A stretch of 34,834 nucleotides of DNA from a virus (lineage: Duplodnaviria > Heunggongvirae > Uroviricota > Caudoviricetes), in IMG/VR virus record IMGVR_UViG_2541047861_000007, positions 1 through 34,834 of that record; one strand, 5' to 3'. A program made the translations under genes and the position numbers. Numbering within the stretch: position 1 is the stretch's first letter; each line of letters begins with the position of its first letter. Below the pieces are notes generated by a model. It saw nothing but the letters and a program-made list of their open reading frames with translations, ran no database searches and was not told the origin of the DNA. Shown one piece after another: positions 1,513-24,199 of this stretch.

Positions 1513-1925
1513 TCATGTCTGTGAAATAGGGTGCCTTATCGACCTTACCCTGGCAACCGATTGACGGGGGATTGCTCCCCCGTCGCGGTTTCCTTACTGC
1601 TTACACTGTAAGAACGCCGCAAACTCCGCTCCCCAGAAGCTCATCCGTATTTCGCACAGCGAACCGTGCAGCATCCAGATGATGAGGATTACCGTCACGC
1701 AGAATGTGATGGCTGTAAGCGATTTTTGCGACATAGCGCTTGCTCCTTTGTTGGAGAGGCGCTAACCTATCACTTGCTTAAGGTAGATATGTTAGGGCCT
1801 CGGTTAAACAGAGATGTTTTCCGGGGCCTTTCCACATCTGGCCTTCGGGTATTCCCTCCGACCATCAGCCGAAAGGCACCCGCGCGTAATCTATCGCTTT
1901 TTTGTTACTCCGGCAATTCTGCCTG

Positions 1926-2186
1926 TTAATTCTGAGGTAAAGGCAAACTCATCTGATTGTTTCCCCTGTGTGAAGCTGGCAGCTCATGCCACGGGATACC
2001 TTCTGAAGAGTGAACGCCGGGGGCGTGTTTCGATGTGAATTTATGGAAAGCTTCCAGTGTTGAGAAACTTATGCCGCATTCCAGATTGTTACACTGGTAA
2101 TATTTTTTCCGTACGGTGTTTGAATCATTTTCCGAACGACTGGTGCGGATACGGGCAGATGCGCCACAAAGCGGACAACGGAACAT
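1926..2186 (-). CDS. ogr: Ogr/Delta-type zinc-finger late-gene transcription activator
   Basis: N-terminus MFRCPLCGASARIRTSR...YYQCNNLECGISF has the CxxC-(22)-CxxxxC zinc-finger arrangement and motif order of P2 Ogr. The ORF is 86 aa, longer at the C-terminus than P2 Ogr (72 aa). Confidence 0.85.
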   Translation of the reverse strand: MFRCPLCGASARIRTSRSENDSNTVRKKYYQCNNLECGISFSTLEAFHKFTSKHAPGVHSSEGIPWHELPASHRGNNQMSLPLPQN

Positions 2187-2364
2187 AGCGACCTCCCTTA
2201 ACGTGGTGCTGTCTCTATTCTAAGCTGTACAAGTTTTAATTCCAACTGACTGCCTACTTTGAACAAGAGATGAACTATTAATTTGGAGATCTCTGTGAGA
2301 CTGTTTTATACCGATGGATTAAGTAAGGCTATTTCTATATTAAGGTTAGTTTTGAATAAAAGAA

Positions 2365-2395
2365 TTTGTCAAAAAAGCATTTGGAGTAGACAATC
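2365..2395 (+). promoter_or_regulatory. Candidate sigma70 promoter for the TIR-domain gene
   Basis: ttgtca-(17)-gacaat upstream of a GGAG Shine-Dalgarno about 8 nt before the ATG at 2430; AT-rich context. Confidence 0.3.
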
Positions 2396-2429
2396 CTCTT
2401 TTCACATTGCTTAAGCAGGAGCTTAATGA

Positions 2430-3344
2430 ATGAAAACCGATTTGTTTATTTCATATGCTTGGACTTCAGATTCCCATAGAGAATGGGTTCGGTTGCTTGC
2501 AAGCCATCTCGACCTTATTGGTTATACGGTTAAAATCGATGAAGCTGTTAGATATGGTTCAAGCTTATCTGGTTTCATGCGAGAGGTTATCGAAACCGAT
2601 CATGTGTTGTTGATTGTCGATGATAATTATGTCGAACGCGCTAATAACAATCCGAATTCTGGAGTTGGTATTGAAAACAAATGGATAAGTGACGCTTTTA
2701 TGGAAAAGCCCTCGACATGGTTGTCAGTTATCTTTGTTCGAAATCCTGAGCGAAAACTACCTAAGTGGCTTGAGGGGCATAATCCTAAAGGGTTTGATTT
2801 TAATTCTAATTCTGATAGAAATGAATTTCCCGGCTCTATGCAGATCGATGCTATTTGGCGTTGGATTGAAGGGCTGCCGGCAGATAAAAAGTATTCAATC
2901 CCATTACCGGTTTATCGTCAACGTATTGCACGGCTTGAACATATTGATATTCTCCGAGCCCCTTCGCGTTATGCAAATCCAGCACTCAAGGGATGTGAGA
3001 TTTTTCGTTTCAGGGATTATTCCCACTATACGGTTGGTAACAGTGAGTACCAATTTAAAATAGTATTTAGTGCATGCTCTCATGATAGTGTTTACATCTA
3101 TATAGATTGTGAACTTAAAGCTATAGGATTGATCACATCTGTAGAATTCAATCCACAAACTGTCGAGTCTTTTTTAACTCCAGGTCGTTCTGTTAATGCG
3201 ACTGTCGGGCAAAAGGTAGTCCTACTAAACTCCTATGGGGTTCTGTGCATTGTAACAATTGATAATGTGCAACATGAGATTAATACCGCAGAGTATGTTC
3301 ATCCACATGTGGAGTTCTCATACGAAATACTTGAAAAAAACTAG
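2430..3344 (+). CDS. TIR-domain protein with an uncharacterised C-terminal domain (candidate defence/abortive-infection cargo)
   Basis: 304-aa ORF. The N-terminal 130 aa (DLFISYAWTSDSHREWVRLLASHLDLIGYTVKIDEAV..GSSLSGFMREVIETDHVLLIVDDNYVERANN) follow the classic TIR pattern (FISY, W..L, G..V..D, I.LLS..Y..S). The C-terminal 170 aa have no motif I recognise. Strongly AT-rich, opposite strand to flanking D and ogr. Confidence 0.65.
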   Translation: MKTDLFISYAWTSDSHREWVRLLASHLDLIGYTVKIDEAVRYGSSLSGFMREVIETDHVLLIVDDNYVERANNNPNSGVGIENKWISDAFMEKPSTWLSVIFVRNPERKLPKWLEGHNPKGFDFNSNSDRNEFPGSMQIDAIWRWIEGLPADKKYSIPLPVYRQRIARLEHIDILRAPSRYANPALKGCEIFRFRDYSHYTVGNSEYQFKIVFSACSHDSVYIYIDCELKAIGLITSVEFNPQTVESFLTPGRSVNATVGQKVVLLNSYGVLCIVTIDNVQHEINTAEYVHPHVEFSYEILEKN

Positions 3345-3490
3345 TGCCACATTATAAAAACTTCAGCGATTCTCATACTCCATTTTACTGATAACGTCCG
3401 CTCTTGGTGCAGAGCGGACTACTACTAGATAAGGTATAGTTTTGTCTGTAATCGTGTTTTTTTTAGGGGTGAGCAATACATCTAAGTTGC

Positions 3491-4591
3491 TCACTCTGTT
3501 TCTGCTATCCATTCCGGGATTTTTGCCTCAAGCTCAAGCTGTGTGGTAAAGCCGCTGTTATCAATGGTGTGCTCGGCTTTTGCAATAATCCAGTCCTGAT
3601 TATCAATCTCGCTTTTAAATCCTGTTACCGTGCCATGCATTTCGGGGTAGAGTTCTGCACGTCCACGTGCCAGCGTGATGGAGAATGATGCGGCTCCGCG
3701 TTGTAGCTGCTGCCACTTTGCCGCCGCTGCACGTCTTGCTGCCTGCTCGTTCTGATAAGTCTTGCGTAACACAAACACGTTGCCTTCCGCACCTTCCATA
3801 TAGTCACCTTCACGGCTGCTGCTTTTCTCCTTTTTCGGTTTGCGGCGTTTCACGCTGACTTTTTTCTTTTTCCCGTAATTAAGATCAAGCCAGTAAGCGC
3901 GTCCCCCCGTATACGCTTCGCGGTCAGCAATGCGGAACTGATGGCGATCGCCACTGCTGCGCGTGATGGCGAACGAGGGCAACGGCTGGCCCTGTGCGTT
4001 CACGCCACCGCCTGGCATGATGAATAACAGATTACCGCTTTTTACCGTAGTGATTGCGCCCAACATTTCCGCCATGCGCGTAAGGAAGGACATGTCGCTT
4101 TCTTCGGTCTGGTCGGCGTGGTCGATTTCGATATCCATCAGCATTTCGCTGATTTGCGGTTTCAGACCGTACCGATGAGCGATGGCGGATACCACGCGCT
4201 CAACGGTCACATCATGCCAGGATACTTCACGTTTAACGTTAAATTCATCCCGAAAATCTGCGCTTCTGGCTGAAACAGTCAGCCTGTCCGGCGGTCCTTC
4301 GTGTGCGATTTCATCAACAATGTAAGACCCTTTTTCTGTCAGCGGTTCGCCTTTCCAGCCAATGAGAACCGTCAGGCGCGCGCCCCGTGGCGGTAGCTGC
4401 AACTGACCATCCGCATCATCCAGCGTGATGGTGAGCTGGTCTGCCTCAAATCCCCGGTTGTCGGTCAGCGACAGGCTCATCAGGCGCTCTGCCACGCCGG
4501 ACAGCGTTTTACCCTCCGCGAGAATATCAAAATCCGGCATTTTCACGGGGTCTGTGCTCTGACTGAGCAATTGCATGGTGGTGTCGGTCAT
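3491..4591 (-). CDS. D: Tail protein D (late control gene D family, baseplate hub)
   Basis: Translation has the length and character of phage gpD-family proteins. Start placed at the ATG preceded by AGGGAGG (MTDTTMQLL) rather than the upstream end of the open frame. Confidence 0.8.
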   Translation of the reverse strand: MTDTTMQLLSQSTDPVKMPDFDILAEGKTLSGVAERLMSLSLTDNRGFEADQLTITLDDADGQLQLPPRGARLTVLIGWKGEPLTEKGSYIVDEIAHEGPPDRLTVSARSADFRDEFNVKREVSWHDVTVERVVSAIAHRYGLKPQISEMLMDIEIDHADQTEESDMSFLTRMAEMLGAITTVKSGNLLFIMPGGGVNAQGQPLPSFAITRSSGDRHQFRIADREAYTGGRAYWLDLNYGKKKKVSVKRRKPKKEKSSSREGDYMEGAEGNVFVLRKTYQNEQAARRAAAAKWQQLQRGAASFSITLARGRAELYPEMHGTVTGFKSEIDNQDWIIAKAEHTIDNSGFTTQLELEAKIPEWIAETE

Positions 4592-4748
4592 CTGCTCCCT
4601 CCCTGTGCGGCATGGTCGCATGTGTGTGCGGGCGGGGTTACTGCTTTTTGTTGTCGCCGGGCGGCAAGAACGGCGCAGGGGTGAGATTACGCGCGTGGTG
4701 GGTGATGATTGTTGCCGAATCATTTAACGGATACAAGGGGCTGAAGCT

Positions 4749-5933
4749 ATGAGTGAAACTCGTTTTCATGGTGCCCGTGTTACGGAAAATACCGACCTGG
4801 TAACAGCGATTAACGATGTTGATTCCAGCGTTATCGGTATCGTGGCAACGGCGGATGATGCGGACGCGAAGCTGTTCCCGCTGAACAAGCCCACACTGCT
4901 GACCCGCGTCAATGACGTGCTGGGAAAATGCGGGACAACGGGGACGCTTTATCGTGCGCTTAAGGCCATCGCAGACCAGGTGAGCACGAAGGTGATCGTC
5001 GTTCGCGTGGCTGAACACAAAGAAGAAGACGGAAAGACGCAGGATCAACTGGTTATCGGTGGTTCTGAGGATGACGGCAGCTATACGGGGATGTATGCGC
5101 TGCTTGTTGCAGAGCAGGATGAAAGCATCGGATACCGTCCGCGTATTCTGGCCGCGCCGGAGCTGGACACGGAGGCTGTAACAAAATCCCTGTGCGTGAT
5201 TGCAGGTAAACTGCGCGCGTTTGTGTATGCCGCATGTCATGGCTGTAACACGATGGCTGAGTCGATTACCTACCGCCAGAAATTCAACGAACGTGAGGTG
5301 ATGCTCTTATGGCCGGACTTCATCGCCTACAACCCGAAAAGTGGCAAAAACGAAACGTTCCCCGCGCCTGCCTATGCGTGCGGCCTTCGTGCGTACATTG
5401 ACCATGAGCAGGGCTGGCACAAATCACTGTCCAACGTTCCGGTTAAAAATGTGCTGGGGATGTCGAGGCATGTGTTCTGGTCGTTGCAGGCCGAAGACAG
5501 CGATGCCAACAGCCTCAACAACAAAGAAATCACGACCATTATTCGTCGCAACGGGTTCCGCTTCTGGGGCAACCGCACACCGGAAACGAACGCCTACATC
5601 TTTGAGGTGTATACCCGAACCGCACAGGTGCTGGCTGATTCAATTGCGGAAGCGCAGTTTGAAACCATCGACAGTCCACTGACGCCTGCGAACGTGAAGG
5701 ATGTTATCAGTGCCATCAGGGCAAAACTGGATTCACTGGTTACTGCCGGGAAACTGATTGGCGCAGAGTGCTGGTATGACGTGGTGGATAACAGCACCAC
5801 GGATTTACGTCAGGGGCGTGTGCGTATTCGCTACAAATATACGCCCGTTCCGCCACTGGAAGACATGGAGCTTTACCAGACGTTTACTGATGAATACTTT
5901 GAACCCGCATTTGCGGTGCTGGGAGGTGCCTGA
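4749..5933 (+). CDS. FI: Contractile tail sheath protein FI
   Basis: 394 aa, motif-by-motif similarity to P2 gpFI (FPLNKP, KLRAF, WPDF, QGWHKSLSNV, RRNGFRFWGNRT, YTRTAQVLADS, YTPVPPLE). Confidence 0.95.
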   Translation: MSETRFHGARVTENTDLVTAINDVDSSVIGIVATADDADAKLFPLNKPTLLTRVNDVLGKCGTTGTLYRALKAIADQVSTKVIVVRVAEHKEEDGKTQDQLVIGGSEDDGSYTGMYALLVAEQDESIGYRPRILAAPELDTEAVTKSLCVIAGKLRAFVYAACHGCNTMAESITYRQKFNEREVMLLWPDFIAYNPKSGKNETFPAPAYACGLRAYIDHEQGWHKSLSNVPVKNVLGMSRHVFWSLQAEDSDANSLNNKEITTIIRRNGFRFWGNRTPETNAYIFEVYTRTAQVLADSIAEAQFETIDSPLTPANVKDVISAIRAKLDSLVTAGKLIGAECWYDVVDNSTTDLRQGRVRIRYKYTPVPPLEDMELYQTFTDEYFEPAFAVLGGA

Positions 5934-6445
5934 TGGCTGTGCCAAAACATCTTCGCTTTTTTACGCTGTTTGTGGATGGCGAAAACGAAGTGGGTAAGGT
6001 GACGTCCGTCACTCTGCCTAAGCTGACGCGCAAAACCGACAGCTACCGGGGTGGTGGCATGATGGGGGCGGTAAGTATTGATCTCGGCCTGGACGACTCC
6101 GCGCTTGATGCGAGCTTTGTCATGGGGGGCGCAGTTCGTGAGCTGTTCCTTAAGTATGGCGGCACGATTGACGGCACACTGCTGCGTTTTGCGGGTGAAT
6201 ACTACACCGATGCAGAAAGCGACCTGTATGAAGTCGAAATGCGCGGACGTGTGACGGAAATTGATATGGGGGAAGCCAAACAGGGCGAAGCCACATCACA
6301 CACTTACGCCATTAAAAACACCTACTACAAGCTGAGCGTTAACGATCGCCCGTTGTGGGAGATTGACCTGCTGAACTTCATTTACCGGAAGGACGGCAAG
6401 GACATTGCGCCCGATCGCATCCGTTCCGCGCTTGGGCTTGGCTGA
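5933..6445 (+). CDS. FII: Tail tube protein FII
   Basis: 170 aa directly after FI with an overlapping stop/start; size and position match P2 gpFII. Confidence 0.9.
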   Translation: MAVPKHLRFFTLFVDGENEVGKVTSVTLPKLTRKTDSYRGGGMMGAVSIDLGLDDSALDASFVMGGAVRELFLKYGGTIDGTLLRFAGEYYTDAESDLYEVEMRGRVTEIDMGEAKQGEATSHTYAIKNTYYKLSVNDRPLWEIDLLNFIYRKDGKDIAPDRIRSALGLG

Positions 6446-6500
6446 TAAGTAATATGCAGGCGGCGCAGTGCGTCGCCTCTGACTGAAAAGGAGACCACTG

Positions 6501-6875
6501 ATGAAAAACATCGATACTGAAACCCAGAATAACACCGTGGCGGATGATGTGACGGCAGATGAGGATATGGCTGTCGAACGTGGTGTAAAACTTTCCCGGC
6601 CAATTGAGCGTGGCGGCGAAAAAATCACGTATGTGGAGATCACCGGGGCTATTGAGCAGGCTGGATCCCTGCGAGGTTTGTCGCTGTCTGATGTGCTGAA
6701 TCTGAAAGCGGATACCATGTTCACGCTGTTGCCTCGCGTGACTTCGCCACGACTGGATGAAGTGATGATTAAAAAAATGTCGTCACGCGATTTTATTCAG
6801 TTGTGCGCTGTGGCTGTAAATTTTATGAGCGAGCCAGACTCTGGCGCGAAGAGCGTGCAGGAGACGGCAGCGTAA
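6501..6875 (+). CDS. E: Tail assembly chaperone E (frame-0 product)
   Basis: 124-aa ORF between tail tube and tape measure, acidic N-terminus, at the position of P2 gene E. Confidence 0.85.
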   Translation: MKNIDTETQNNTVADDVTADEDMAVERGVKLSRPIERGGEKITYVEITGAIEQAGSLRGLSLSDVLNLKADTMFTLLPRVTSPRLDEVMIKKMSSRDFIQLCAVAVNFMSEPDSGAKSVQETAA

Positions 6876-7039
6876 TCACCCTGGTGTGCTTTGAGCACAT
6901 CGAAGATCTGGTGGCGGATATTGCCGCCATTTTTAACTGGTCGCCCGCCGAAATCTTCATGATGACGCCCGGCGAAGTGGTTAGCTGGCGTGAGCGGGCG
7001 GCACTTCGCAGCGGGAATGCAGACAATGAAGACTCTTGA
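6501..7039 (+). CDS. E+E' fusion produced by programmed -1 frameshift (slip site not fixed)
   Basis: The -1 frame is open from 6773 to the stop at 7037..7039 and encodes LVCFEHIEDLVADIAAIFNWSPAEIFMMTPGEVVSWRERAALRSG, the E'-type extension. Candidate slip sites are the A7 run near 6771..6777 and TTTTATT/TTTTATG heptamers at about 6791 and 6821. Confidence 0.6.
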
Positions 7040-9833
7040 TATCCGGGTCGCTTTCAGCGCCGTTGACAGGCTGACCCGGCCTGCCGAAAACGCCCGCCGC
7101 CTGATGGGGCAGTTTGGTGACTCTATCCAGCGAACGCAGGGGGCGATCAAAAATCTCGAGCGTCAGGCGCGTTCATTTGAGCGCGCCCGTGACGCTGTCA
7201 GTAAAGCGGATGCGGGCATCGTAAAAGCACGACGCCAGCTTAACGCCCTTAATCAGTTACAACGCACGGGTACAGTGCTCAGCGAAAAACAGCAAAAGCT
7301 GATGCAGCAGTTAAGCACCCGGCTTGAACGCCTGAATGAATCGCGCACACGGGAAATTCAGAAAATGCGGGAGCTTGGCGGAGAGCTGAAACGCCACGGC
7401 ATTTCCCTGACAGGCAGCGATAACACCATCCAGCAGGCCATCAGACGCACCGAACAGTACAACAACCAGCTTGAACGCGAACGGCAGGCGCTTGCGCGTG
7501 TAACGCGGGCGCGTGAGCGGTATTCGCGCGCGCAGGAAACTGCGGGAAAACTGAAAACAGGTGGTGCGCTGGCAATTGGTGCGGCAGCGGCTGGCGGTTA
7601 TGCCGCCGGGCGTTTTTTGCAGCCTGCGATCGGGTTCGGGAAAGAGATGTCCCGCGTTCAGGCGCTGACGCGAATCGACAAAAACAGCCCGCAGTTTAAG
7701 GCGCTGCGTGAGCAGGCGTTAAAACTTGGCTCTGAAACGCAGTTCACCGCAGGCGATGCCGCCAGTGGACAGGCATTTCTTGCAATGGCTGGCTTCACTC
7801 CGCAGGCCATTCAGGCTGCGCTTCCCGGCGTACTGAGCATGGCAACGGCTGGCGGTATGGATCTCGGCGAGACGGCAGATATTGGCTCAAATATCCTGAC
7901 GCAGTTCGGCCTTTCTGCTGACCAGATGGACCGGGTCGGTGACACACTCACCGCAGCGTTTACCCGTACCAACACTGACCTTCGCGCACTGGGCGAAACC
8001 ATGAAATATGCAGGTCCGGTGGCGGGTAAGCTGGGAATATCGCTGGAGCAGGCCGCAGCGATGGCTGGCGTGCTGGCGAATATGGGCATCAGAGGGAGTG
8101 ATGCCGGGACGGCAATGCGTGCCAGCCTGGCTCGTCTGGCATCACCGCCAAAGGCAGCGGCAGAAGCGCTGAAAGAACTGGGCGTGTCCGTCTCGGATGC
8201 CGGGGGCAAAATGCGCCCGATGGAAGATCTGCTGGCTGACCTTTATAAAGCTACCCGCAAATACGGGGAAGTTGACCGGGTATCCTTCTTTAAGGACATC
8301 GCCGGGGAAGAGGCTTTCACATCGTTTATGGCACTCGTTGATGCGGCGGGTGACGGTTCCTTACCCAAACTGAGAAAAGAACTTGAGGGCGCACGCGGTG
8401 AGGCTGAACGCACGGCAAAGGTTATGGCCGACAACCTTGATGGCGACCTGAAAAATCTCGACAGCGCATGGGAAGGTCTTCGTATTCGCATCAGTGATCT
8501 GGTTGACGGTTCGCTGCGTTCTGTCACGCAGTGGCTAACGCGGGTGGTCTCAAAAGTGACGGCACTGGCGCAGGCCCATCCTGTACTGACGCGCCAGCTA
8601 CTGATTGCAGGCGGTGCGCTGCTGGCAGTGACTGCAACCGTAGGCTCGTTGTCGCTTGCTCTTGGTGTGCTTGCTGGCCCACTGGCAAAACTGCGTCTTG
8701 GTTTTTCCCTCCTGACCGGATCAATGAATGCTGTCAGGCTCCTGCCTGCACTATGGGGAATGGTGACGGGTTCCGTTTCGTTACTGGGGGGCGCTATCGG
8801 GGCGCTGTTCAGCCCGGTCGGATTGATTGCTGCTGCGTTTGTGGCTGCGGCAGTTCTCATCTGGAAATACTGGGAACCCATCAAGGCGTTTTATGCCGGG
8901 GTGTTCAGCGGGATTATGGAGCGGCTGGCCCCGTTACGCGAAACCTTTGAACGGTTTGGTCCTGTTTTTGACGCAATCGGAAGCGGGATCAGCCAGGTGT
9001 TTAACTGGTTTAAATCGCTGTTGTCACCGATGGAGTCCAGCAAGGAAACGCTGGATAAATGCACAAGTGCTGGCGAGGTATTCGGTAACGTTCTTGGCGG
9101 TGCGTTACAGCTTGTCCTGACGCCTGCAAAAATGCTGCTGGATACGTTGGCGTGGATACTTGAAAAACTCGGTGTTCTTCCGGATGAAGCGGAAAGGGCG
9201 CGCAAGAAAATCGAAGACGCACAGCGTGCGGCCATTCTTCAGGACAAGGTTGCTCTGTTTCAGGGAGACATTGCGAAAATCAATCCGCCGAAGTCTGCGG
9301 AAAATGGCAATGGCACCGGAGGCGATAAACCCAAAGACAACAAACCGCTCACAGACAGCAATACCGGTACGCTACGCAGACTCAGCAAGATTGCTGATAA
9401 CACAGGTAAGCTGGTTGATGAGACGAAAAAACGCATTGGCCCTGGCGATATTGTCTTTAAGAACCTGCCCCGCGCACTTGCTGTTCGTGGGGAGTGGCAG
9501 GAGCGGAAGATTGCGCAGGTCAGTAAGCCTGCCCCCGCAATTAAGATCGCACCCGTGGTCCAGGCTCCGCTGCCTCCGGCGCTGGTCCCTGTTGTTGCGG
9601 CCAGCTCCCGCCCGGTGGCGGAGGCCATACGATCGCCAGTGGCGTCAGTTCCTGCAACTTCCCGTAACCGGGAGCCTGTTGCCTCCGGATTTGGCGGTGA
9701 AATTCATGTTCATCTGCATAACGTTGTTACGCAGAATCCCCGCGAACTGGCGAAACTGGTCGGTGAAATGGTCAGGGCAGAAATGGAACGGCGCGCCCGT
9801 GCCGGGCGTGGCAGTTTTTACGATAAAGATTGA
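7017..9833 (+). CDS. T: Tail tape measure protein T
   Basis: Long ORF after E/E' with an N-terminal coiled-coil region, Ala/Gly-rich hydrophobic central segments and a C-terminal domain. Start is ambiguous (GTG 6990, ATG 7017 or ATG 7026). Confidence 0.9.
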   Translation: MQTMKTLDIRVAFSAVDRLTRPAENARRLMGQFGDSIQRTQGAIKNLERQARSFERARDAVSKADAGIVKARRQLNALNQLQRTGTVLSEKQQKLMQQLSTRLERLNESRTREIQKMRELGGELKRHGISLTGSDNTIQQAIRRTEQYNNQLERERQALARVTRARERYSRAQETAGKLKTGGALAIGAAAAGGYAAGRFLQPAIGFGKEMSRVQALTRIDKNSPQFKALREQALKLGSETQFTAGDAASGQAFLAMAGFTPQAIQAALPGVLSMATAGGMDLGETADIGSNILTQFGLSADQMDRVGDTLTAAFTRTNTDLRALGETMKYAGPVAGKLGISLEQAAAMAGVLANMGIRGSDAGTAMRASLARLASPPKAAAEALKELGVSVSDAGGKMRPMEDLLADLYKATRKYGEVDRVSFFKDIAGEEAFTSFMALVDAAGDGSLPKLRKELEGARGEAERTAKVMADNLDGDLKNLDSAWEGLRIRISDLVDGSLRSVTQWLTRVVSKVTALAQAHPVLTRQLLIAGGALLAVTATVGSLSLALGVLAGPLAKLRLGFSLLTGSMNAVRLLPALWGMVTGSVSLLGGAIGALFSPVGLIAAAFVAAAVLIWKYWEPIKAFYAGVFSGIMERLAPLRETFERFGPVFDAIGSGISQVFNWFKSLLSPMESSKETLDKCTSAGEVFGNVLGGALQLVLTPAKMLLDTLAWILEKLGVLPDEAERARKKIEDAQRAAILQDKVALFQGDIAKINPPKSAENGNGTGGDKPKDNKPLTDSNTGTLRRLSKIADNTGKLVDETKKRIGPGDIVFKNLPRALAVRGEWQERKIAQVSKPAPAIKIAPVVQAPLPPALVPVVAASSRPVAEAIRSPVASVPATSRNREPVASGFGGEIHVHLHNVVTQNPRELAKLVGEMVRAEMERRARAGRGSFYDKD

Positions 9834-9839
9834 GGAGTC

Positions 9840-10334
9840 ATGGCCATGATGATGATCTACGGCATGTTTGTTTTTGAGTTGCGCACATTGCCGCATCAGC
9901 AGTTACAGCAAAATAAAAGCTGGCGACATGTGAAAAATGAACGCGTTAACCGTTCAGCAAGCTGGCAGTATATCGGGGCAGGCGATGATCGCATCGTTCT
10001 TTCTGGTGTGCTTTATCCTGAAATTACAGGTGGCGAAGTGTCGCTGTCGCTGCTGACCACGCAGGCGTATACAGGACGCCCCTGGCCTCTTATTGATGGC
10101 GTCGGGCAGATTTACGGCATGTATGTCCTGACCGAAACGAATACGACCCGTTCCGAGTTTGATCGCTACGGTAAGGCGAAAAAGATAGAATTTTCACTGA
10201 CTCTTGAACGCTGTGATGAGGATTTGCGGGAGCGCCTGCAATCCTCATCGTTCAGTGATATGCTGTCCGGCTTCAAAGATAAGGTCACATCATCCCTTAA
10301 CAGCGCGGCCAGCTCCGTTAAAGGGCTGTTTTGA
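9840..10334 (+). CDS. U: Tail protein U
   Basis: 164 aa; IYGMFVFELRTLPHQQLQ..VLYPEITGG..AWPLIDGVGQIYGMYVL parallels P2 gpU. Confidence 0.9.
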   Translation: MAMMMIYGMFVFELRTLPHQQLQQNKSWRHVKNERVNRSASWQYIGAGDDRIVLSGVLYPEITGGEVSLSLLTTQAYTGRPWPLIDGVGQIYGMYVLTETNTTRSEFDRYGKAKKIEFSLTLERCDEDLRERLQSSSFSDMLSGFKDKVTSSLNSAASSVKGLF

Positions 10335-10340
10335 TTAACG

Positions 10341-10372
10341 CAAAACCGCTAATGGTCAGATTAGCGGTTTTT
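10341..10372. terminator. Bidirectional rho-independent terminator between convergent U and invertase genes
   Basis: aaaaccgctaatggtcagattagcggtttttt: 9-bp stem with an A-tract before and T-tract after. Confidence 0.65.
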
Positions 10373-10962
10373 TATTTTCCCTGAGTCTGCCCGGTTGTTT
10401 CTTCAGCCTGTATATCGCCTACAGGGTGATAACGATAAATCGTCGATATACCGATGTCGTAAATGATCGCCAGTTGTTTCCTGTCATGGCCGTTTTTAAT
10501 CAGCCTTTCTATTTGCTCATGTTGTTCTTTTGTCAACTTCGGGCGACGTCCGCCAATGCGTCCCTGTGCTCGTGCTGCTGCCAGCCCGGCCAGTGTACGC
10601 TCTACAATTAATTCACGTTCCATTTCTGCTAAAGCTCCCATGACGTGAAAAAAGAAACGCCCCATGGGTGTTGATGTGTCAATGCTGTCCGTCAGGCTAC
10701 GGAAATTAACACCTTTTTCCCGCAATTCCTCAATAAGCGTGATCAGGTGTTTCTTACTCCTGCCCAGCCTGTCCAGCTTCCAGACAACCAGCGTATCTCC
10801 TTCTGATAGCGTTCTGAGCAGTTTTTTCAATCCCGGTCTGGCTGATTTCGTTCCGCTGATTTTATCTTCAAAAATCAGTTCACATCCTGCGCACTCCAGC
10901 GCGTTACGCTGCAATTCCGTGTTCTGGTCATTTGTTGATACGCGAACATAACCAATAAGCAT
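10372..10962 (-). CDS. Serine-recombinase DNA invertase (Gin/Pin/Cin/Hin family)
   Basis: MLIGYVRVSTNDQNTELQRNAL..DTLVVWKLDRLGRS..FRSLTDSIDTSTPMGRFFFHVMGALAEMERELI..GRIGGRRPKLT is near-identical in motif content to Mu Gin, including the catalytic Ser in YVRVST and a C-terminal HTH. Confidence 0.93.
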   Translation of the reverse strand: MLIGYVRVSTNDQNTELQRNALECAGCELIFEDKISGTKSARPGLKKLLRTLSEGDTLVVWKLDRLGRSKKHLITLIEELREKGVNFRSLTDSIDTSTPMGRFFFHVMGALAEMERELIVERTLAGLAAARAQGRIGGRRPKLTKEQHEQIERLIKNGHDRKQLAIIYDIGISTIYRYHPVGDIQAEETTGQTQGK

Positions 10963-10989
10963 GAGCATCCCCCTGAATAAAAACCGGAG

Positions 10990-11403
10990 ATGATGCCCGT
11001 TACCCGTTATCTCTGCATTTTCACAAACGTTGGTTTGGGAGAAGCAGCGAAACGGGGGGTGGGAACAGGGGAAAATCAGATACCGGACATGGCTTCTTTT
11101 GCCAGTGGTGATGGATGGATGAAATTACCCAACGGGAAAATCCTGCAATATGGTCGTGGTGCGATTACGCCGACATTATCGACGCAAACAATGAGAATTA
11201 CATTCAGCATCCCTTTTCCTAAAGAAGTGGACTGCGCCATGCTTACCCATTCTGGTGATGGTGGTGCGCCTTTAGGCGCTGGACGGGGATTCGTGATGAC
11301 TGCAGAAGGTCCAACACTAACCGGTTTTAATTCCGCTTACAGAACTGCATCAACCAGCTCCACAGTATCGATGAATTACAGTTGGTGGGCTGTTGGTGAG
11401 TAA
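10990..11403 (+). CDS. Alternative (currently silent) tail-fibre C-terminal segment inside the invertible region
   Basis: Open frame on the opposite strand from H, containing VGLGE encoded by the same 15-bp sequence as LGLGE in H; no independent promoter expected. Confidence 0.65.
11019..11044. repeat. Gix/cix-like recombination site, left end of invertible segment (approximate)
   Basis: ttttcacaaacgTTGGTTTGGGAGAAg; the reverse complement reads TTCTCCCAAACC-AA-CGTTTGTGAA, resembling the 12+2+12 architecture of Gin-family sites and shared in inverted orientation with the H site. Confidence 0.5.
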
Positions 11404-11414
11404 TTTTATTCAGG

Positions 11415-11867
11415 GTGATTTATATGAACGAATATGTTTATAGTGCCAGACATAATGCTTTTTTCCCTGTGGATATGATTGATAAATATAAATCAGAGGG
11501 ATGGGATTTATCAGATGTGAAAGAAGTTAATCAAAATATTGTCGGTGAATTTATGGCTGAGCCGCCACAAGGAAAAATCCGTATTGCCGGAGATGATGGG
11601 CTGCCTGCGTGGGCAGATATTCCTCAACCCACGCATGAAGAGCTTATTGAAATTACTGAATCAGAAAGACAGCTACTAATTAACCAGGCCAACGAATACA
11701 TGAACAGTAAGCAATGGCCCGGTAAAGCCGCTATTGGTCGTCTGAAAGGTGAGGAACTGGCGCAATATAATTTGTGGCTGGATTATCTGGATGCACTGGA
11801 GCTGGTTGATACCTCCAGTGCGCCAGATATTGAATGGCCTACGCCTCCGGCAATTCAGGCCAGATGA
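11415..11867 (+). CDS. Tail fibre assembly protein (alternative, partner of the silent fibre tip)
   Basis: 150-aa ORF directly after the alternative fibre segment; 3' end overlaps convergently with the other assembly gene, the pattern of the Mu U/U' pair. Confidence 0.75.
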   Translation: MIYMNEYVYSARHNAFFPVDMIDKYKSEGWDLSDVKEVNQNIVGEFMAEPPQGKIRIAGDDGLPAWADIPQPTHEELIEITESERQLLINQANEYMNSKQWPGKAAIGRLKGEELAQYNLWLDYLDALELVDTSSAPDIEWPTPPAIQAR

Positions 11868-12441
11868 CATCCGGCGCGGTGCTGGTATCTGTTGCCGTCA
11901 CCGCGTCAATGTAATCCAGCACAGCGTTAAGTCTGGTTGTTTCTGCCTGTGTCAGTTTACGTCCGGCCTGCAATTTCAGTTGAATCAGACTGATGGAAGC
12001 CATTGCAGTATCAATCAGCGACTGGCGCTGTGCTTCTGCTGCATCTACTGCGGCGCTGTGCTGTGCCTCGGTATCCGTCACCCATTTCTCACCATCCCAT
12101 TTATCGTATGACGTTAACGGGGCGATAGTGGTTGTATTTTCAGGATAATCACCCGGAGCTGTGATTTCTTTCGATTCTCCTGTTTCGGTGCTATAGACAA
12201 TTTCACCGCGATGATCTGGCACATATTCCCATGAGTTTAAATCCATCGAACGGCAGATAGCATAACCCGCCTTATGTGTGCCAGGGGCATCTAAACAGGA
12301 ATATGCAGGGATACCGACACCAATGGCAAGATATTCATTTGAAGTGGAAATATATTCCCGTGTTTCACCATCATAGTTATAGACGGTAATATTCCCCGCC
12401 TTCGTGGCAATAAGTTCGCTATTTAATACGGCTTTATCCAT
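11839..12441 (-). CDS. G: Tail fibre assembly protein G (expressed orientation)
   Basis: 200-aa ORF immediately after H with an ATGA-type stop/start overlap; C-terminal ..TATDTSTAPDVIWPELPEA parallels the alternative copy (..VDTSSAPDIEWPTPPA). Confidence 0.8.
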   Translation of the reverse strand: MDKAVLNSELIATKAGNITVYNYDGETREYISTSNEYLAIGVGIPAYSCLDAPGTHKAGYAICRSMDLNSWEYVPDHRGEIVYSTETGESKEITAPGDYPENTTTIAPLTSYDKWDGEKWVTDTEAQHSAAVDAAEAQRQSLIDTAMASISLIQLKLQAGRKLTQAETTRLNAVLDYIDAVTATDTSTAPDVIWPELPEA

Positions 12442-13964
12442 TATGCAGCTCTCACGATATAGTTAAATGCAATATTTCGTGGACGGGTTTCGCTCCCACC
12501 TGTGTTACCAATACTCCCTCGTGTATGTAGCGTTGGTGATGGAATCAGAGTTCCTCCGGCATCGGCAGCATCAAGCCCCCGGCCTTGCGTATATGCTCTT
12601 CTGAAGATTGTCGCCAGTTCCCATTCCTCTTTTGAATCATACCCATCGTTGGCAACAACAATATGGCGGTGTTTTTCCAGCATCCCAGTCTGAATGCTCA
12701 ATAAAGCACGTCCTGCATCAATACCACGCCTGTCATCCCATCCACGAATAAACTCACCACGGAGATCAGGTAGTTTCCCTGATGGATATGCTGTAGCAAG
12801 ATGGGGATATTTCACCTTATCAAAGGCAGCGCCGTTGCATTTCAGCCAGCCCGTTGGCGGGGTTGCGGAGGGCCACGGAACAGGTACACCAACAGGCAAT
12901 GCAGAGCCTTCTCCCAAACCAAGATAATCAAGAACTCCCTGTGTGCTGGGCTTACTAAGAATTGCACGACCAACACTTGTCAGTGCAGTTAACGCGGCAC
13001 GATCTACCCCTGTAAAATAAGGGAGTTTATCTGCCGCTGTAGCAAGCCCTGCCAGAGCAGTGAGTATGGCGTTTGCCGGTTGTCTTCCATTAGCCAGGTC
13101 GTATGCAGCCTTTACCGCTTTTGGCGTTGCAGCCAGTGTTTCAGATGTGCTGTTGGTTGCACTACTGAGCTGAACAAGCCCTTTTTGCGTCGTGGTGGCG
13201 TTCTGGGCGGTATATTTCCCGTTAGCCAGGTCATACGCCGCCTTGACCGCTTTTGGCGTTGCAGCCAGTGTTTCAGACGTGCTGTTTGTGGCGCTACTGA
13301 GTTGAACAAGGCCTTTTCGTGCCGTAGTCGCATCCTGAGCGGTATATTTCCCGTTAGCCAGGTCATATGCAGCCTTTACCGCTTTCGGTGTTGCGGCCAG
13401 TGTTTCAGATGTACTGTTAGTTGCACTGCTTAACTGAGTAAAACCTTTTGCGGTCAGCGAGGCGTCCGGGTGGCGTCGTGACTGTTCGTGCTCAGAAATT
13501 TTGTCATCCACATATTTACGTGTTGCCAGTACCACAGCCGGGTCGATTTTCAGCGTGATGGCTTCGGTGTTCGTGACAACCAGAATCATGCGGATAGTCT
13601 GGGTACGACCACTGCCTTCCTGCAACTGCGGTTTGTACGTTTCCGGGCAGTTCGCCACCGCAATGAGTACGCCTTCATCATCATAAAGGCCAATCTCACG
13701 TATCCAGAATCCACCCTCGTTCTCAGGGATGATTTGCTCCGCAATAATCTGGTTCTGGCTGTTCGGGTCAACACTCAGAAGATTCAGCGGTGCAATGCGT
13801 TTCTGGTTAATCAGTTTTGTTTGTGCAGGATCTGGTGTCGGTAATACACCATTTGCATCACCAACGGCCATTTGCGTCAGATTCAGCTTACTGCCGAGCA
13901 TCGTCGCGTTAGCCAGTCGTGCTGCGCCCTGATTAGTCAGAATGGCGTAGTATTTCACTGTCAT
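12441..13964 (-). CDS. H: Tail fibre protein H (constant N-terminal part plus variable C-terminal part)
   Basis: 507 aa with three tandem 44-aa repeats and a C-terminal receptor-binding-type region (WLKCNGAAFDKVKYPHLATAYPSGKLPDLRGEFIRGWDD); follows gpI as in P2. Confidence 0.9.
   Translation of the reverse strand: MTVKYYAILTNQGAARLANATMLGSKLNLTQMAVGDANGVLPTPDPAQTKLINQKRIAPLNLLSVDPNSQNQIIAEQIIPENEGGFWIREIGLYDDEGVLIAVANCPETYKPQLQEGSGRTQTIRMILVVTNTEAITLKIDPAVVLATRKYVDDKISEHEQSRRHPDASLTAKGFTQLSSATNSTSETLAATPKAVKAAYDLANGKYTAQDATTARKGLVQLSSATNSTSETLAATPKAVKAAYDLANGKYTAQNATTTQKGLVQLSSATNSTSETLAATPKAVKAAYDLANGRQPANAILTALAGLATAADKLPYFTGVDRAALTALTSVGRAILSKPSTQGVLDYLGLGEGSALPVGVPVPWPSATPPTGWLKCNGAAFDKVKYPHLATAYPSGKLPDLRGEFIRGWDDRRGIDAGRALLSIQTGMLEKHRHIVVANDGYDSKEEWELATIFRRAYTQGRGLDAADAGGTLIPSPTLHTRGSIGNTGGSETRPRNIAFNYIVRAA
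12909..12934. repeat. Gix/cix-like recombination site inside H at the constant/variable junction (approximate)
   Basis: Plus strand TTCTCCCAAACC-AA-GATAATCAAGAA; the 15-bp core is identical, in inverted orientation, to the site near 11029..11043. Confidence 0.5.
13083..13448 (-). repeat. Tandem 132-bp (44-codon) in-frame repeats within H, about 2.8 copies
   Basis: Protein repeat KG(F/L)(T/V)QLSSATNSTSETLAATPKAVKAAYDLANGKYTAQ.ATT.. at residues 173-216, 217-260 and 261-294; the repeat is also visible in the overlapping artefactual ORFs 13080..13433 and 13112..13366. Confidence 0.8.
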
Positions 13965-15812: not shown

Positions 15813-16390
15813 TGCGGGCCTCCTGTCGAATCGCTGCCACCTTTCACGCCACCGTGTTTATGCGTATGCACGGTAATGCCGTTTGAGGTGAAGTTGCCGC
15901 CGCTGTGCGTGATATTGCCGCTCATCTTTCCTCCTTTTGTTACGTCAAGCGTCGCCGTTCTCAGAAGGTTTGTGCATTCCACGACGGGCGTGTCCAGTTT
16001 CACGCTGACGGATGCCTGTAAAGTGGCCGTTTTCATGCCGCTGGCGCTCAGTGCGCCTGCGTCCGCGTCGTAGCGGAACACCGCGCCGTCCGGCGCGCTG
16101 ATCACGATTTCTTTCAGGCTTTTGCCGGGAGCCGGATTGGCATCACTCCACAGGCTGCCAATTATCATGGCGGTTTCCGGGTTGCCGCCAATGCAGGCAA
16201 TTACCACCTGTTCGCCTGGTGATGGCGGCAGCCACACATTGAAGGCTCCCGCGCGCGTGGTGTTCCAGCGCAGCCAGCCTGTTTCCAGTTCGCCGCTGCG
16301 AACGCGCACGCGCCAGGACTTCTCATCAACTTCAGAGATGATCCCGGTGCGGATGATATTGCTCAGCAGTCGCATGAGTTCTGCGCTCAC
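15809..16390 (-). CDS. V: Baseplate spike protein V
   Basis: 193 aa with a Gly/Ser-rich C-terminal region typical of spike proteins; position matches P2 gpV. Confidence 0.88.
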   Translation of the reverse strand: MSAELMRLLSNIIRTGIISEVDEKSWRVRVRSGELETGWLRWNTTRAGAFNVWLPPSPGEQVVIACIGGNPETAMIIGSLWSDANPAPGKSLKEIVISAPDGAVFRYDADAGALSASGMKTATLQASVSVKLDTPVVECTNLLRTATLDVTKGGKMSGNITHSGGNFTSNGITVHTHKHGGVKGGSDSTGGPQ

Positions 16391-22293: not shown

Positions 22294-22447
22294 AGTTTTT
22301 GCCCCTCTGACTGGTTCTTCAGTCATGATGGCAAAGCGTAACAGGCTGATACAAAGGGCTTTTGTTGTAAGAAAACGGCCAGAACAGGGGGTTAAGGAGA
22401 ACAGTTTCGCGCGCGGGTAATCTTCCTGTAATTACTCAGGGGGAGCA

Positions 22448-24199
22448 ATGATTCAGGACGCTTTTGTGCGCCAGCGTGCGCGGCAACTTTACTGGCAGGG
22501 TTATCCGCCCGCAGAAATATCACGTCTGATGGGAATAAACCCGAACACGATTTATGCGTGGAAAAAACGTGACCAGTGGGATGAAACGCCACCCGTGCAG
22601 CGTGTCACGCAGTCCATCGATGCGCGCCTCATCCAGCTTACTGAAAAACAGAATAAAACAGGCGGTGACTTTAAGGAAATAGACCTGCTGACCCGGCAGC
22701 TTAAAAAGCTGCATGATGGCCAGCCGGATGCGACGGCCGCAGGAAAGAAAGGCCGGGCGAAAAAACTCAAAAATCATTTCACGCCGGAACAGATTGCCGC
22801 ACTGCGGGAAAAAATCATCAGCAGGCTGGAGTGGCATCAGCGGGGCTGGTTTGACTCCCTGACCCTTTGCAGGGAAGCCGGGATACGTAACAGGATGATC
22901 CTGAAATCCCGACAGATTGGGGCGACCTGGTATTTTGCACAGGAAGCACTGCTGATGGCGCTGCGTGACGATGTGGCGCAACCTTACCAGCGTAACCAGA
23001 TTTTTTTGTCTGCGTCGCGTCGTCAGGCGTTCCAGTTTAAAAGCATTATTCAGAAGGCCGCGGCTGAAGTTGATGTGGAGCTGAAAGGGGGCGATAAAAT
23101 CATCCTCTCCAACGGCGCAGAGCTGCATTTTCTCGGCACTTCTGCTGCGTCGGCACAGTCCTATACGGGCAATTTTTATTTTGATGAATTTTTCTGGGTC
23201 AGTCGCTTTGCTGAACTGCGCAAGGTGGCTGGCGCTATGGCAACCCTCAGCGGACTGCGGCGCACCTACTTCTCCACGCCATCCACCGAAACGCACGAGG
23301 CATACGCCTACTGGAACGGCGACCGCTGGAATGAGAAAAAGGCCTCGCATAAACGCCAGCGTTTTTCTGTGGACTGGAAAACGCTGCATAACGGGCTTAT
23401 CTGCCCTGACCGGACGTGGCGGCAAATTGTCACGCTGGAAGATGTGGTTAATCACGGCTGGAAACACACTGATATCGACGAAATTCGTGATGAAAACACC
23501 GAAGACGAGTTCCTCAATCTCTATATGTGTGAGTTTGTCCGCGAAGGGGAATCGGCATTTAACCTGAATATCCTGATTGGCTGCGGTGTTGACGGATACG
23601 ACGACTGGAAAGACTGGAAACCTTTTGCTCCCCGCCCGATGGGGAATCGTCCGGTATGGATTGGGTATGACGCAAACGGCAGTAGTGGCAACGGCGACAG
23701 CGGCGCTGTGTCCGTGGTGGTTCCTCCGGCTGTTCCTGGTGGCCGTTTTCGAACGGTGGAGACGCGACGCGTTCAGGGGCTGGAGTTTGAAGAACAGGCC
23801 AGAGTCATTGAAGAGTTCACGTATCGCTACAACGTGGAACACATCGGCATTGATGTGACGGGCGGGAACGGGGAGGCTGTTTATCAGATAGTGAAACGGT
23901 TTTTCCCTGCTGCTATTCCGTACACCTTCACGCTGTCATCAAAACGGTCGCTGGTACTGAAAATGCTGCAAATAATGCGTGCCGGGCGGTGGGAATACGA
24001 TCGCGCCGAACGCGAGCTGGTCGCGGCCTTTAACGCCGTGCGTAAGGTGAAAACACCGGGCGGCTTTATCACTTACGAAACGGACCGCGCGAGGGGGATC
24101 AGCCACGGCGACCTTGCGTGGGCAACCATGCTTGCTGTCATTAACGAACCGATTGGCGGCGAAGGAGAAAACGAGCGTTTCACGGTTATGGAGTTCTGA
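22448..24199 (+). CDS. P: Terminase large (ATPase) subunit P
   Basis: 583 aa, divergent from O as in P2, with a terminase-type ATPase N-terminal half and nuclease C-terminal half. Confidence 0.93.
   Translation: MIQDAFVRQRARQLYWQGYPPAEISRLMGINPNTIYAWKKRDQWDETPPVQRVTQSIDARLIQLTEKQNKTGGDFKEIDLLTRQLKKLHDGQPDATAAGKKGRAKKLKNHFTPEQIAALREKIISRLEWHQRGWFDSLTLCREAGIRNRMILKSRQIGATWYFAQEALLMALRDDVAQPYQRNQIFLSASRRQAFQFKSIIQKAAAEVDVELKGGDKIILSNGAELHFLGTSAASAQSYTGNFYFDEFFWVSRFAELRKVAGAMATLSGLRRTYFSTPSTETHEAYAYWNGDRWNEKKASHKRQRFSVDWKTLHNGLICPDRTWRQIVTLEDVVNHGWKHTDIDEIRDENTEDEFLNLYMCEFVREGESAFNLNILIGCGVDGYDDWKDWKPFAPRPMGNRPVWIGYDANGSSGNGDSGAVSVVVPPAVPGGRFRTVETRRVQGLEFEEQARVIEEFTYRYNVEHIGIDVTGGNGEAVYQIVKRFFPAAIPYTFTLSSKRSLVLKMLQIMRAGRWEYDRAERELVAAFNAVRKVKTPGGFITYETDRARGISHGDLAWATMLAVINEPIGGEGENERFTVMEF

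Follow-up and report, generated by a model that had tools for sequence, protein, structure and literature searches.

The inverted orientation of the tail genes FI-FII-E/E'-T-U relative to phage P2 is normal, and fixed, throughout a large, long-established P2-like branch that includes phage P88 and its relatives. The window, meaning the whole stretch of 34,834 nucleotides analysed here (IMG/VR record IMGVR_UViG_2541047861_000007), is a P88-type (Xuanwuvirus/Gemsvirus-like) P2-family prophage adjoining serS. Its inverted order is ordinary for the lineage and is already present in known phages. This order very probably arose by one old inversion of FI-U, with one Ogr-type activator site in a single spacer predicted to drive the divergent FI-U and D units.

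Gene order of the window relative to P2

The window has the gene organization of P2-like phages (Peduoviridae), with Q-P divergent from O-N-M-L, and with V-W-J-I, H-G, FI-FII, E/E', T, U, D, and ogr. It shares with P2 the gene set Q P / O N ... R S V W J I H G / FI FII E E' T U D / ogr, an Ogr-type activator, dyad sites with a GTTGT left half, and divergent P/O late promoters on one site. When 20 window proteins are compared to P2 by tblastn, the identities are only 26–61%, and the genes follow the P2 order apart from the orientation of the block.

In the P2 record, FI-FII-E-T-U-D-ogr share the direction of V-W-J-I-H-G, and FI-U-D form one co-directional operon from PF in which the U stop overlaps the D start. 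In the window, by contrast, FI-U is inverted and D stands alone. The initial annotation had described the block (4749–10334, plus strand) as inverted relative to a co-directional P2 order, with D and ogr on the minus strand, and the ORF strands and PHROG matches agree with this description. H (12441–13964) and G (11839–12441) also lie on the minus strand, as it had stated.

The gene for the ogr/Delta-type zinc-finger late activator is found at 1926–2186 on the minus strand (PHROG 603, transcription regulator, 7.2e-16; RefSeq "ogr/Delta-like zinc finger family protein"). The encoded Ogr is 93–94% identical to the P88 and 500465-2 homologues, and its translation has the cysteine spacing CX2CX24CX4C, compared to CX2CX22CX4C in P2 Ogr (PMC3931495). 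D, which encodes the tail (baseplate hub) protein gpD, lies at 3491–4591 on the minus strand (PHROG 52 over residues 1–366, 1.8e-164) and has the Shine-Dalgarno sequence GGGAGGGAG 5 nt ahead of its ATG. Window gpD is 99% identical to P88 gp51 and 49% identical to P2 gpD. D keeps the ancestral orientation and is now its own transcription unit, diverging from FI across a spacer of exactly 157 bp (4592–4748), the length first reported.

The inverted block itself begins on the plus strand with the tail sheath gene FI (4749–5933; PHROG 23, 2.5e-126), whose product is 45% identical to P2 FI and 99% identical to that of P88, and continues with the tail tube gene FII (5933–6445; PHROG 55, 1.4e-59; RefSeq "phage major tail tube protein"). 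The tail assembly chaperone pair (PHROG 103) consists of E (6501–6875) and an E' extension to 7039 in the -1 frame. An ORF at 6803–7039 lies in this -1 frame relative to E, and the RefSeq names for the positions matching E/E' are "phage tail protein E" and "GpE family phage tail protein". These are followed by the tape measure gene T (6990–9833; PHROG 28, 8.6e-214), for which the RefSeq start corresponds to window position 7026, and by the tail gene U (9840–10334; PHROG 76, 5.4e-75), which ends the block.

Beyond U, on the minus strand, lies a gene for a Din-family serine DNA invertase (10372–10968; PHROG 125, 1.7e-98). The two genes converge over a shared hairpin, also recognized in the initial annotation, with 37 bp between their stops. 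This hairpin (10342–10371) is a predicted bidirectional intrinsic terminator with a 12-bp stem and A/T runs on either side. Its folding energies on the two strands are -15.6 and -15.2 kcal/mol, with z values of -3.7 and -4.0.

Distribution of the inverted order and the neighboring invertase

Gene order and strands in the window are identical to those of P88, 500465-2 (Gemsvirus), and Shae_phiSM (Xuanwuvirus), and P884B11 is likewise inverted; this likeness runs through ogr, D, FI-U, the invertase, the invertible fiber segment, and H-I-J-W-V. In the window, as in P88-type phages generally, D diverges from FI and H-I-J-W-V converges after U. The D/FI spacer of the P88-group phages is 157 bp long and contains the same dyad. 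The 24-kb late region is collinear with P88, 500465-2, and Shae_phiSM at 94.6–96% nucleotide identity over 80–86% of its length. Identity multiplied by coverage is approximately 0.77–0.81 for these late 24 kb against P88-type members, collinear and in one place per record. The ICTV genus criterion of approximately 70% identity applies to the whole genome, and the window is accordingly placed no more closely than as Xuanwuvirus/Gemsvirus-like. The window differs from the P88 group in its tail-fiber C-termini and chaperones (H is 51–67% identical), in its integration site, and in its cargo genes, including a bSEFIR/TIR gene between D and ogr that is absent from P88. P88 is described as an inducible, plaque-forming phage (PMC5285337; PMC6456863), which means that the inverted arrangement is functional.

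The same order extends well beyond this group. Klebsiella phages Kp4847-1 (Reipivirus) and Kp4875-2 (Reginaelenavirus), whose proteins are 45–73% identical to those of the window, have it without the invertase. In a scan of species-representative genomes, D diverges from FI in all 52 prophage loci with FI at least 58% identical to that of the window (approximately 25 mostly enterobacterial genera). Of the loci with a more distant FI, 26 still have D, and every one of these 26 shows the canonical order. Orientation is uniform across the 59 loci of the inverted clade, and H-I-J-W-V is convergent downstream of U wherever it falls within the fetched DNA, with locus L026 as the sole exception. Neighbor-joining trees of FI and of D both place the inverted loci on one side of a single bipartition. 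Among complete E. coli genomes, 1349 of 5426, or approximately a quarter, match the region from D to the invertase collinearly at 80% or more, and a synthetic query for the P2-type U-to-D junction has no match in the 1413 E. coli genomes carrying these genes. The initial annotation had allowed that the arrangement might be normal in this lineage, and the synteny comparison with related P2-like prophages that it called for shows this to be correct: related invertase-bearing phages share the orientation, which makes it a lineage feature.

The invertase belongs to a tail-fiber switching cassette and is incidental to the inversion of the block. Its invertible segment (11018–12934) is bounded by 26-bp hix/gix-like sites at 11018–11043 and 12909–12934, which form a 15/15 inverted repeat with half-site matches. 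Within this cassette, the active G and H C-terminus are on the minus strand and an alternative H C-terminus and chaperone (10990–11867) are on the plus strand. The segment at 11045–12907 is 100% identical but flipped in NZ_CP126928.1, and the invertase therefore appears to be active. In these respects the fiber system resembles Gin, Cin, Hin, and Pin (of Mu, P1, Salmonella, and e14), with a serine invertase, 26-bp inverted sites inside H, and both orientations seen. The FI-U block, unlike such segments, has no flanking gix/hix-like inverted-repeat sites, is independent of the invertase, and occurs in a single orientation over the 1413 genomes. Among close relatives, only the true fiber segment, which serves as the positive control, was found in both orientations.

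The position of the block, whose right end lies only 37 bp from the gene of an apparently active invertase, could suggest a recent inversion in this strain, catalyzed by the invertase on a pseudo-gix site near D. A past inversion of an invertase-mediated or illegitimate kind was indeed proposed in the initial annotation, but it finds no support as a recent or invertase-linked event. The invertase is not tied to the inverted block: it is found in 13 of 59 inverted loci and 1 of 28 canonical ones, and the 46 inverted loci that lack it include the Klebsiella phages and E. coli FCI17. Moreover, Peduovirus magyaro (phage "P2" from O157:H43 T22, NC_041848.1) has the invertase and invertible fiber cassette at approximately 89% nucleotide identity, in the same slot between the fiber genes and the sheath operon, yet its FI-FII-E-T-U-D-ogr are co-directional with V-H. 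The cassette thus does not track the inversion of the block. At the junctions, the phage's own recombination half-site TTCTCCCAAACC is absent from both 4592–4748 and 10335–10372 when up to 3 mismatches are allowed, which confirms the earlier remark that a gix-like site is missing from the left breakpoint. Across the search as a whole there are 17 matches, compared to 28 expected by chance, and the exact ones occur only at the true fiber-segment sites. A scan of 3400–12700 also finds no inverted repeats linking the two junctions, and just chance-level imperfect pairs elsewhere. A recent invertase-catalyzed event is refuted by the distribution data, and we give it next to no probability. We regard an assembly artefact, in which the 5.7-kb block would be mis-oriented, as less probable still. 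Nothing more than the departure from P2 order speaks for mis-assembly, which had also been raised at the outset, and it is excluded by the occurrence of the same junctions in 1349 complete E. coli genomes, in 52 loci from other genera, and in the independently sequenced P88, P884B11, Shae_phiSM, 500465-2, 520873, and Chuche. The block is also not flanked by repeats that could confuse an assembler.

The D/FI spacer as a predicted late promoter

The D/FI spacer contains a dyad, TGT-N12-AGA, at 4652–4669, with -10-like hexamers on both sides: GATGAT at 4704–4709 toward FI and GACCAT at 4616–4611 toward D, each 44–49 nt from the dyad center. Within the window this dyad recurs only once, at 22366–22383 in the O/P spacer (22327–22447), which is the counterpart of the shared PP/PO activator site of P2. 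Both TGTTGT-N12-AGAAC and its looser form TTGT-N12-ASAA have exactly two matches in the 34.8 kb, in these same two spacers, and Kp4847-1 and Kp4875-2 have the activator site in the same two spacers as well. In P2, PP/PO consists of one dyad-symmetric activator site flanked by two divergent late starts, each approximately 55 nt from its center; the P2 record is annotated "activator binding site; pO, pP promoters", with starts 55–56 nt on either side of the one site. Both window spacers fit this geometry, with hexamers 44–49 nt from the center (45–50 nt on the O side). Relative to PP/PO, the function of the window D/FI spacer is predicted from sequence, and the right half of its dyad is AGA.

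The consensus for P2 late promoters, of which four operons have been summarized, is TGT-N12-ACA (PMC3931495). A strict scan of the window for this consensus gives 6 matches compared to 8 expected, with none in the late spacers; the AGA right half was spotted by eye when the D/FI and O/P spacers were compared, and was then used for scanning. AGA is non-canonical, and ACA occurs in 28 of 52 relatives. Both hexamers are weak, and a generic sigma-70 scan of the D/FI spacer finds nothing, which is expected for activator-dependent promoters and is therefore uninformative either way. By its sequence, the spacer fits the pattern of an Ogr/Delta late promoter, for which a TGT-N12-ACA-like dyad approximately 55 nt upstream of the start, a -10, and a poor -35 are characteristic, and the window encodes a cognate zinc-finger activator, the ogr homologue at 1926–2186.

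One TGT-N12-A[C/G]A is present in the D/FI spacer of 54 of the 59 inverted loci, 75–88 nt from the FI start. The five loci without an exact match include L054, for which the computed spacer is empty, and several from Symbiopectobacterium; degraded prophages may account for some of them. A hexamer of the form N-A-N-N-N-T begins exactly 44 nt from the dyad center in 94% of 52 distinct spacers on the D side and in 96% on the FI side, although these spacers are related by descent and such counts are not independent trials. Conserved blocks flank the dyad on both sides. Taken with this conservation, the features of the spacer lead us to infer that it is a bidirectional late promoter like P2 PP/PO, with putative Ogr-dependent starts in both directions. 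No third dyad or PV-type spacer is found in the window, where the S stop overlaps the V start, whereas in P2 the PV promoter stands separately between S and V.

Origin of the inverted block and its significance

An ancient inversion is the likely origin of the block, in a form that assigns neither a mechanism nor exact endpoints. In the simplest history, the FI-FII-E/E'-T-U segment of the ancestral P2 "F operon" would have flipped once, long ago, while D and ogr stayed in place. One end would lie between U and D and the other upstream of the putative late-promoter activator site of FI, which would bring the FI promoter region beside the start of D. A dyad works in either orientation, and the single Ogr-type site in the 157-bp spacer could then drive FI-to-U rightward and D leftward, in the layout of P2 PP/PO. 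U now ends at the predicted bidirectional terminator, shared with whatever fills a variable slot beside the tail-fiber genes. Here the slot is filled by the Din-family invertase cassette, which flips only its own tail-fiber segment.

Two other accounts start from the same lineage-wide order. In mosaic replacement, an FI-U module from another contractile-tail phage lineage would have been inserted in the opposite orientation, in keeping with the mosaic nature of phage genomes, with an FI that is just 45% identical to that of P2, and with a gap in the identity distribution. However, genes outside the block are equally far from P2 (D 49%, J 55%, N 42%, P 44%, Q 47%), and the Klebsiella relatives show comparable identities for the genes of the block and for the others. 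The FI and D trees show the same inverted-versus-canonical split, and the putative promoter on the FI side retains a P2-type dyad at a P2-type distance from FI. Mosaic acquisition is improbable because the distance from P2 is even across the block and its surroundings; structural proteins at 26–61% identity in both parts likewise argue that the block is not a foreign module. Somewhat less improbable, but still unlikely, is a lineage-fixed order in which D is transcribed from a promoter of its own, whether constitutive or under other regulation, and in which the conserved D-side block is merely a 5' UTR and ribosome-binding element. The D-side hexamer is weak, and its location approximately 20 nt upstream of the D start codon means that translation signals could explain part of the conservation. 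Against this, the hexamer is at the exact mirror distance from the dyad center (44–49 nt) in 94% of distinct spacers, as on the FI side, and each spacer has a single dyad. The O/P spacer of the same genome has this one-dyad, two-promoter layout, which P2 documents for PP/PO, and D, an essential late tail gene, has no further gene ahead of it on its strand.

Under the preferred reading of one old inversion around a shared activator site, a broader proposal has somewhat better than even chances. The inversion would have a single origin and mark a large clade of mainly enterobacterial Peduoviridae, in which the late regulon was rewired from PP, PO, PV, and PF to two one-dyad bidirectional nodes, P<->O and D<->FI. 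The orientation-independent dyad would have made the inversion viable by at once giving the orphaned, essential D an activator-dependent promoter. No explicit description of the block inversion was found in the literature on P88, Citrobacter phiSM, tailocins, and Xuanwuvirus, and no paper describing such rewiring to two bidirectional Ogr-dyad nodes was found.

The result is mainly a correction, in that P2 is unsuitable as the synteny reference for P88-type prophages. These prophages are very common in E. coli (UTI89, ST131, APEC) and are also found in other Enterobacterales, and scans that flag deviations from P2 order should not count the FI-U block as a rearrangement. The divergent D/FI junction is easy to score and gives a clean marker: at all loci examined it told this clade apart from P2-like elements of canonical order. 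The mirrored spacer, with its putative one-dyad, two-promoter layout, would be a compact, naturally occurring case in which the symmetry of an activator site allows an inversion to split an operon while its regulation is kept.

Gene order of the prophage

The window contains a prophage of the P2 family, located downstream of serS (1–1293), and its layout was read from the ORF listing and PHROG matches. The ogr (1926–2186) and D (3491–4591) genes lie on the minus strand. The plus strand encodes FI (4749–5933), FII (5933–6445), E (6501–6875, with E' in the -1 frame), T (6990–9833) and U (9840–10334). Beyond U are a serine invertase (10372–10968, minus), an alternative fibre C-terminus with a chaperone (10990–11867, plus), and the minus-strand genes G (11839–12441), H (12441–13964) and, onward from H, I, J, W, V, S, R ... 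N and O; P and Q (22448–25245) are on the plus strand. In the P2 record, FI-FII-E-T-U-D-ogr is co-directional with V-W-J-I-H-G, while here FI through U runs opposite, so the block orientation first noted is correct. Coordinates and strands also agree with the divergence of D and FI across a spacer of exactly 157 bp (4592–4748). The stop codons of U and the invertase are 37 bp apart, and this gap (10335–10371) contains a hairpin with a 12-bp stem and good folding on both strands.

Positions 3491–10968 are 100% identical to E. coli O2:K1:H4 APEC E12053 (NZ_CP126928.1). In that RefSeq record (fetched locus L004, 20001–20845, corresponding to window 3491–4335), the intact 366-aa D is cut to 263 aa plus a pseudo-fragment. 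In the Shae_phiSM record (L003, 2294–4745), D is labelled 'ogr' and the sheath gene is labelled 'late control gene D'.

Cargo genes were also found. A low-GC (~40%) cargo gene with a TIR domain (2430–3344, plus) separates D from ogr, on the strand opposite to both, and matches the bSEFIR defence model of PADLOC (1.9e-44). The position is empty in P88 and taken by a different 1-kb ORF in phage 500465-2; the D/ogr junction thus appears to be a cargo hotspot. A KAP-family P-loop NTPase gene (26099–27463, plus, ~31% GC), which matches PADLOC candidate defence family PDC-S20 (1.8e-75), lies between Q and replication gene A, in the place of old/tin in P2. At the prophage end, between serS and ogr, a Hok/Gef-family toxin gene (~1594–1734, minus) is common to the window, P88, 500465-2 and E. 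coli FCI17.

Distribution and origin of the inverted block

The initial annotation allowed for a normal arrangement of the lineage, an assembly artefact, or a past inversion mediated by the adjacent invertase. When 1900–12500 was compared with phage records by megablast, P88, P884B11, Shae_phiSM, 520873, 500465-2 and others matched collinearly from ogr through the invertase. The annotated strands in these invertase-bearing phages agree (plus for FI-U; minus for D, the invertase and the fibre genes), so the arrangement is not peculiar to this genome. The 24-kb late region is 94.6–96% identical to these phages at 80–86% coverage, with one collinear place per record. P88 can be induced and causes lysis of E. 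coli strains (PMC5285337, PMC6456863); the inverted arrangement is therefore functional. A single collinear match to at least 80% of the D-to-invertase region occurs in 1349 of 5426 complete E. coli genomes, a quarter of them; UTI89 and strains of ST131 are among these. E. coli genomes were also searched with a synthetic sequence in which the U end adjoins the D start, as in P2, and its halves matched separately in 1413 genomes, never as one place. Within this lineage, the opposite block orientation was not found, and both an assembly artefact and a flip-flop switch of the block are thus ruled out.

An invertase-mediated inversion, suggested by adjacency, is likewise rejected. Only 13 of the 59 inverted loci have an invertase after U, and the other 46 lack it; in E. 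coli FCI17, fibre genes come directly after the inverted block. The same invertase cassette (~89% nucleotide identity) is found in Peduovirus magyaro, whose FI-U-D-ogr order is fully canonical. The left breakpoint had been described as lacking a gix-like site, and indeed neither junction contains a half-site of the phage's own recombination site, nor does any inverted repeat connect the two. The invertase is not involved in the block inversion; its cassette sits in a variable slot beside the fibre genes, which in the inverted clade borders U rather than FI.

The invertase acts on its own fibre segment, which is bounded by 26-bp hix/gix-like sites (11018–11043 and 12909–12934). The 1863 bp between the sites (11045–12907) recur at 100% identity in the same prophage of NZ_CP126928.1, but in the opposite orientation, so the window and that assembly represent the two switch states. 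These encode an H of 507 or 559 aa, with differing C-termini and chaperones. At ~13000–13430, a motif of about 30 aa (SSATNSTSETLAATPKAVKAAYDLANGKYTAQ...) occurs three times in tandem within H. BLAST comparison with the RefSeq copy gives 98.7% identity and off-diagonal repeat matches, a hint that this repeat region varies between assemblies.

The structural proteins share only 26–61% identity with those of P2, inside and outside the block alike, which indicates a deep family branch and not P2 carrying a foreign module. Klebsiella phages Kp4847-1 (Reipivirus) and Kp4875-2 (Reginaelenavirus) have the inverted block without the invertase, at 45–73% protein identity. An FI-alignment scan, with one genome per species, returned 80 loci, which were classified. 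D diverges from FI in all 52 loci whose FI is at least 58% identical to that of the window, and H-I-J-W-V is convergent beyond U in every locus where it lies inside the fetched DNA, except L026. The 52 loci stem from Salmonella, Citrobacter, Edwardsiella, Enterobacter, Kosakonia, Symbiopectobacterium, Mixta, Pantoea, Erwinia, Izhakiella, Trabulsiella, Klebsiella, Kluyvera, Raoultella, Brenneria, Serratia, Pectobacterium, Yokenella, Photorhabdus, Xenorhabdus, Rouxiella and Chania, as well as one Aeromonas MAG and one probably contaminated 'Vagococcus' assembly. Canonical order is seen in 26/26 more distant loci that keep D (Acinetobacter, Burkholderia, Paraburkholderia, Celerinatantimonas, Stutzerimonas, Pseudomonas, Dyella and some Serratia). 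Neighbour-joining trees built from FI and from D place the inverted loci on one side of a single bipartition, and a single old event suffices to account for the distribution. Canonical order is likely the ancestral state, since the more distant P2-like loci have it.

Contigs of Vagococcus sp. WN89Y, which bears a Gram-positive label, carry two enterobacterial P2-like prophage loci, L011 (FI 97% identical to that of the window) and L083 (P2-like FI, 86% to P2). These probably reflect contamination or a mislabelled assembly.

Probable late promoters of the split operon

The FI operon of P2 ends with D, whose start overlaps the U stop, while in the window no gene lies upstream of D on its strand; a promoter is therefore needed in the D/FI spacer. 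Comparison of this spacer with the O/P spacer reveals a shared TGTTGT-N12-AGAAC, of which the 34.8-kb window has exactly two copies (4649–4671 and 22363–22385); in a whole-window scan, the looser TTGT-N12-ASAA is restricted to the same two spacers. The P2 late-promoter dyad has the consensus TGT-N12-ACA (PMC3931495), and by its sequence the shared element is this dyad with one base changed. Kp4847-1 and Kp4875-2 have the dyad in the same two spacers, one of them as a perfect TTGT-N12-ACAA. A single TGT-N12-A[C/G]A is present in the D/FI spacer, 75–88 nt from the FI start, in 54/59 inverted loci.

When 52 distinct spacers were laid out from the dyad centre, conserved blocks flanked it on both sides. 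On the D side in 94% of them and on the FI side in 96%, the start of an N-A-N-N-N-T hexamer falls exactly 44 nt from the centre, and the hexamer is almost absent at other distances. In the window, the hexamer reads GACCAT on the D side (4616–4611) and GATGAT on the FI side (4704–4709); the O/P dyad has CATCAT (O side) and TAATCT (P side) at the same or an adjacent distance. The P2 record has one activator site for pO and pP, with starts 55–56 nt to either side, and this geometry predicts starts near 4605 for D and 4716 for FI. The single dyad would thereby drive divergent late transcription of D and FI, and the split operon is probably expressed from a one-dyad, two-promoter spacer.

P2 has orf30 and PV between S and V, whereas the window has no equivalent spacer, the S stop overlapping the V start (16387–16390). 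No third late-promoter dyad was found in the window, its copies being confined to the D/FI and O/P spacers. Together with the S/V overlap, this suggests that O through G may form one long operon in this lineage, and that the late regulon of the inverted clade may run from two bidirectional nodes only.

A literature search found no description of the inversion or of a bidirectional D/FI promoter. The inverted order is nonetheless already known and ordinary, a lineage norm visible in public records: phages that have been deposited with annotation and classified by ICTV show it (P88 since 2014), and the window is identical to an annotated RefSeq chromosome. What is mildly new is only the putative one-dyad, two-promoter solution and the use of the D/FI junction as a marker of the clade.
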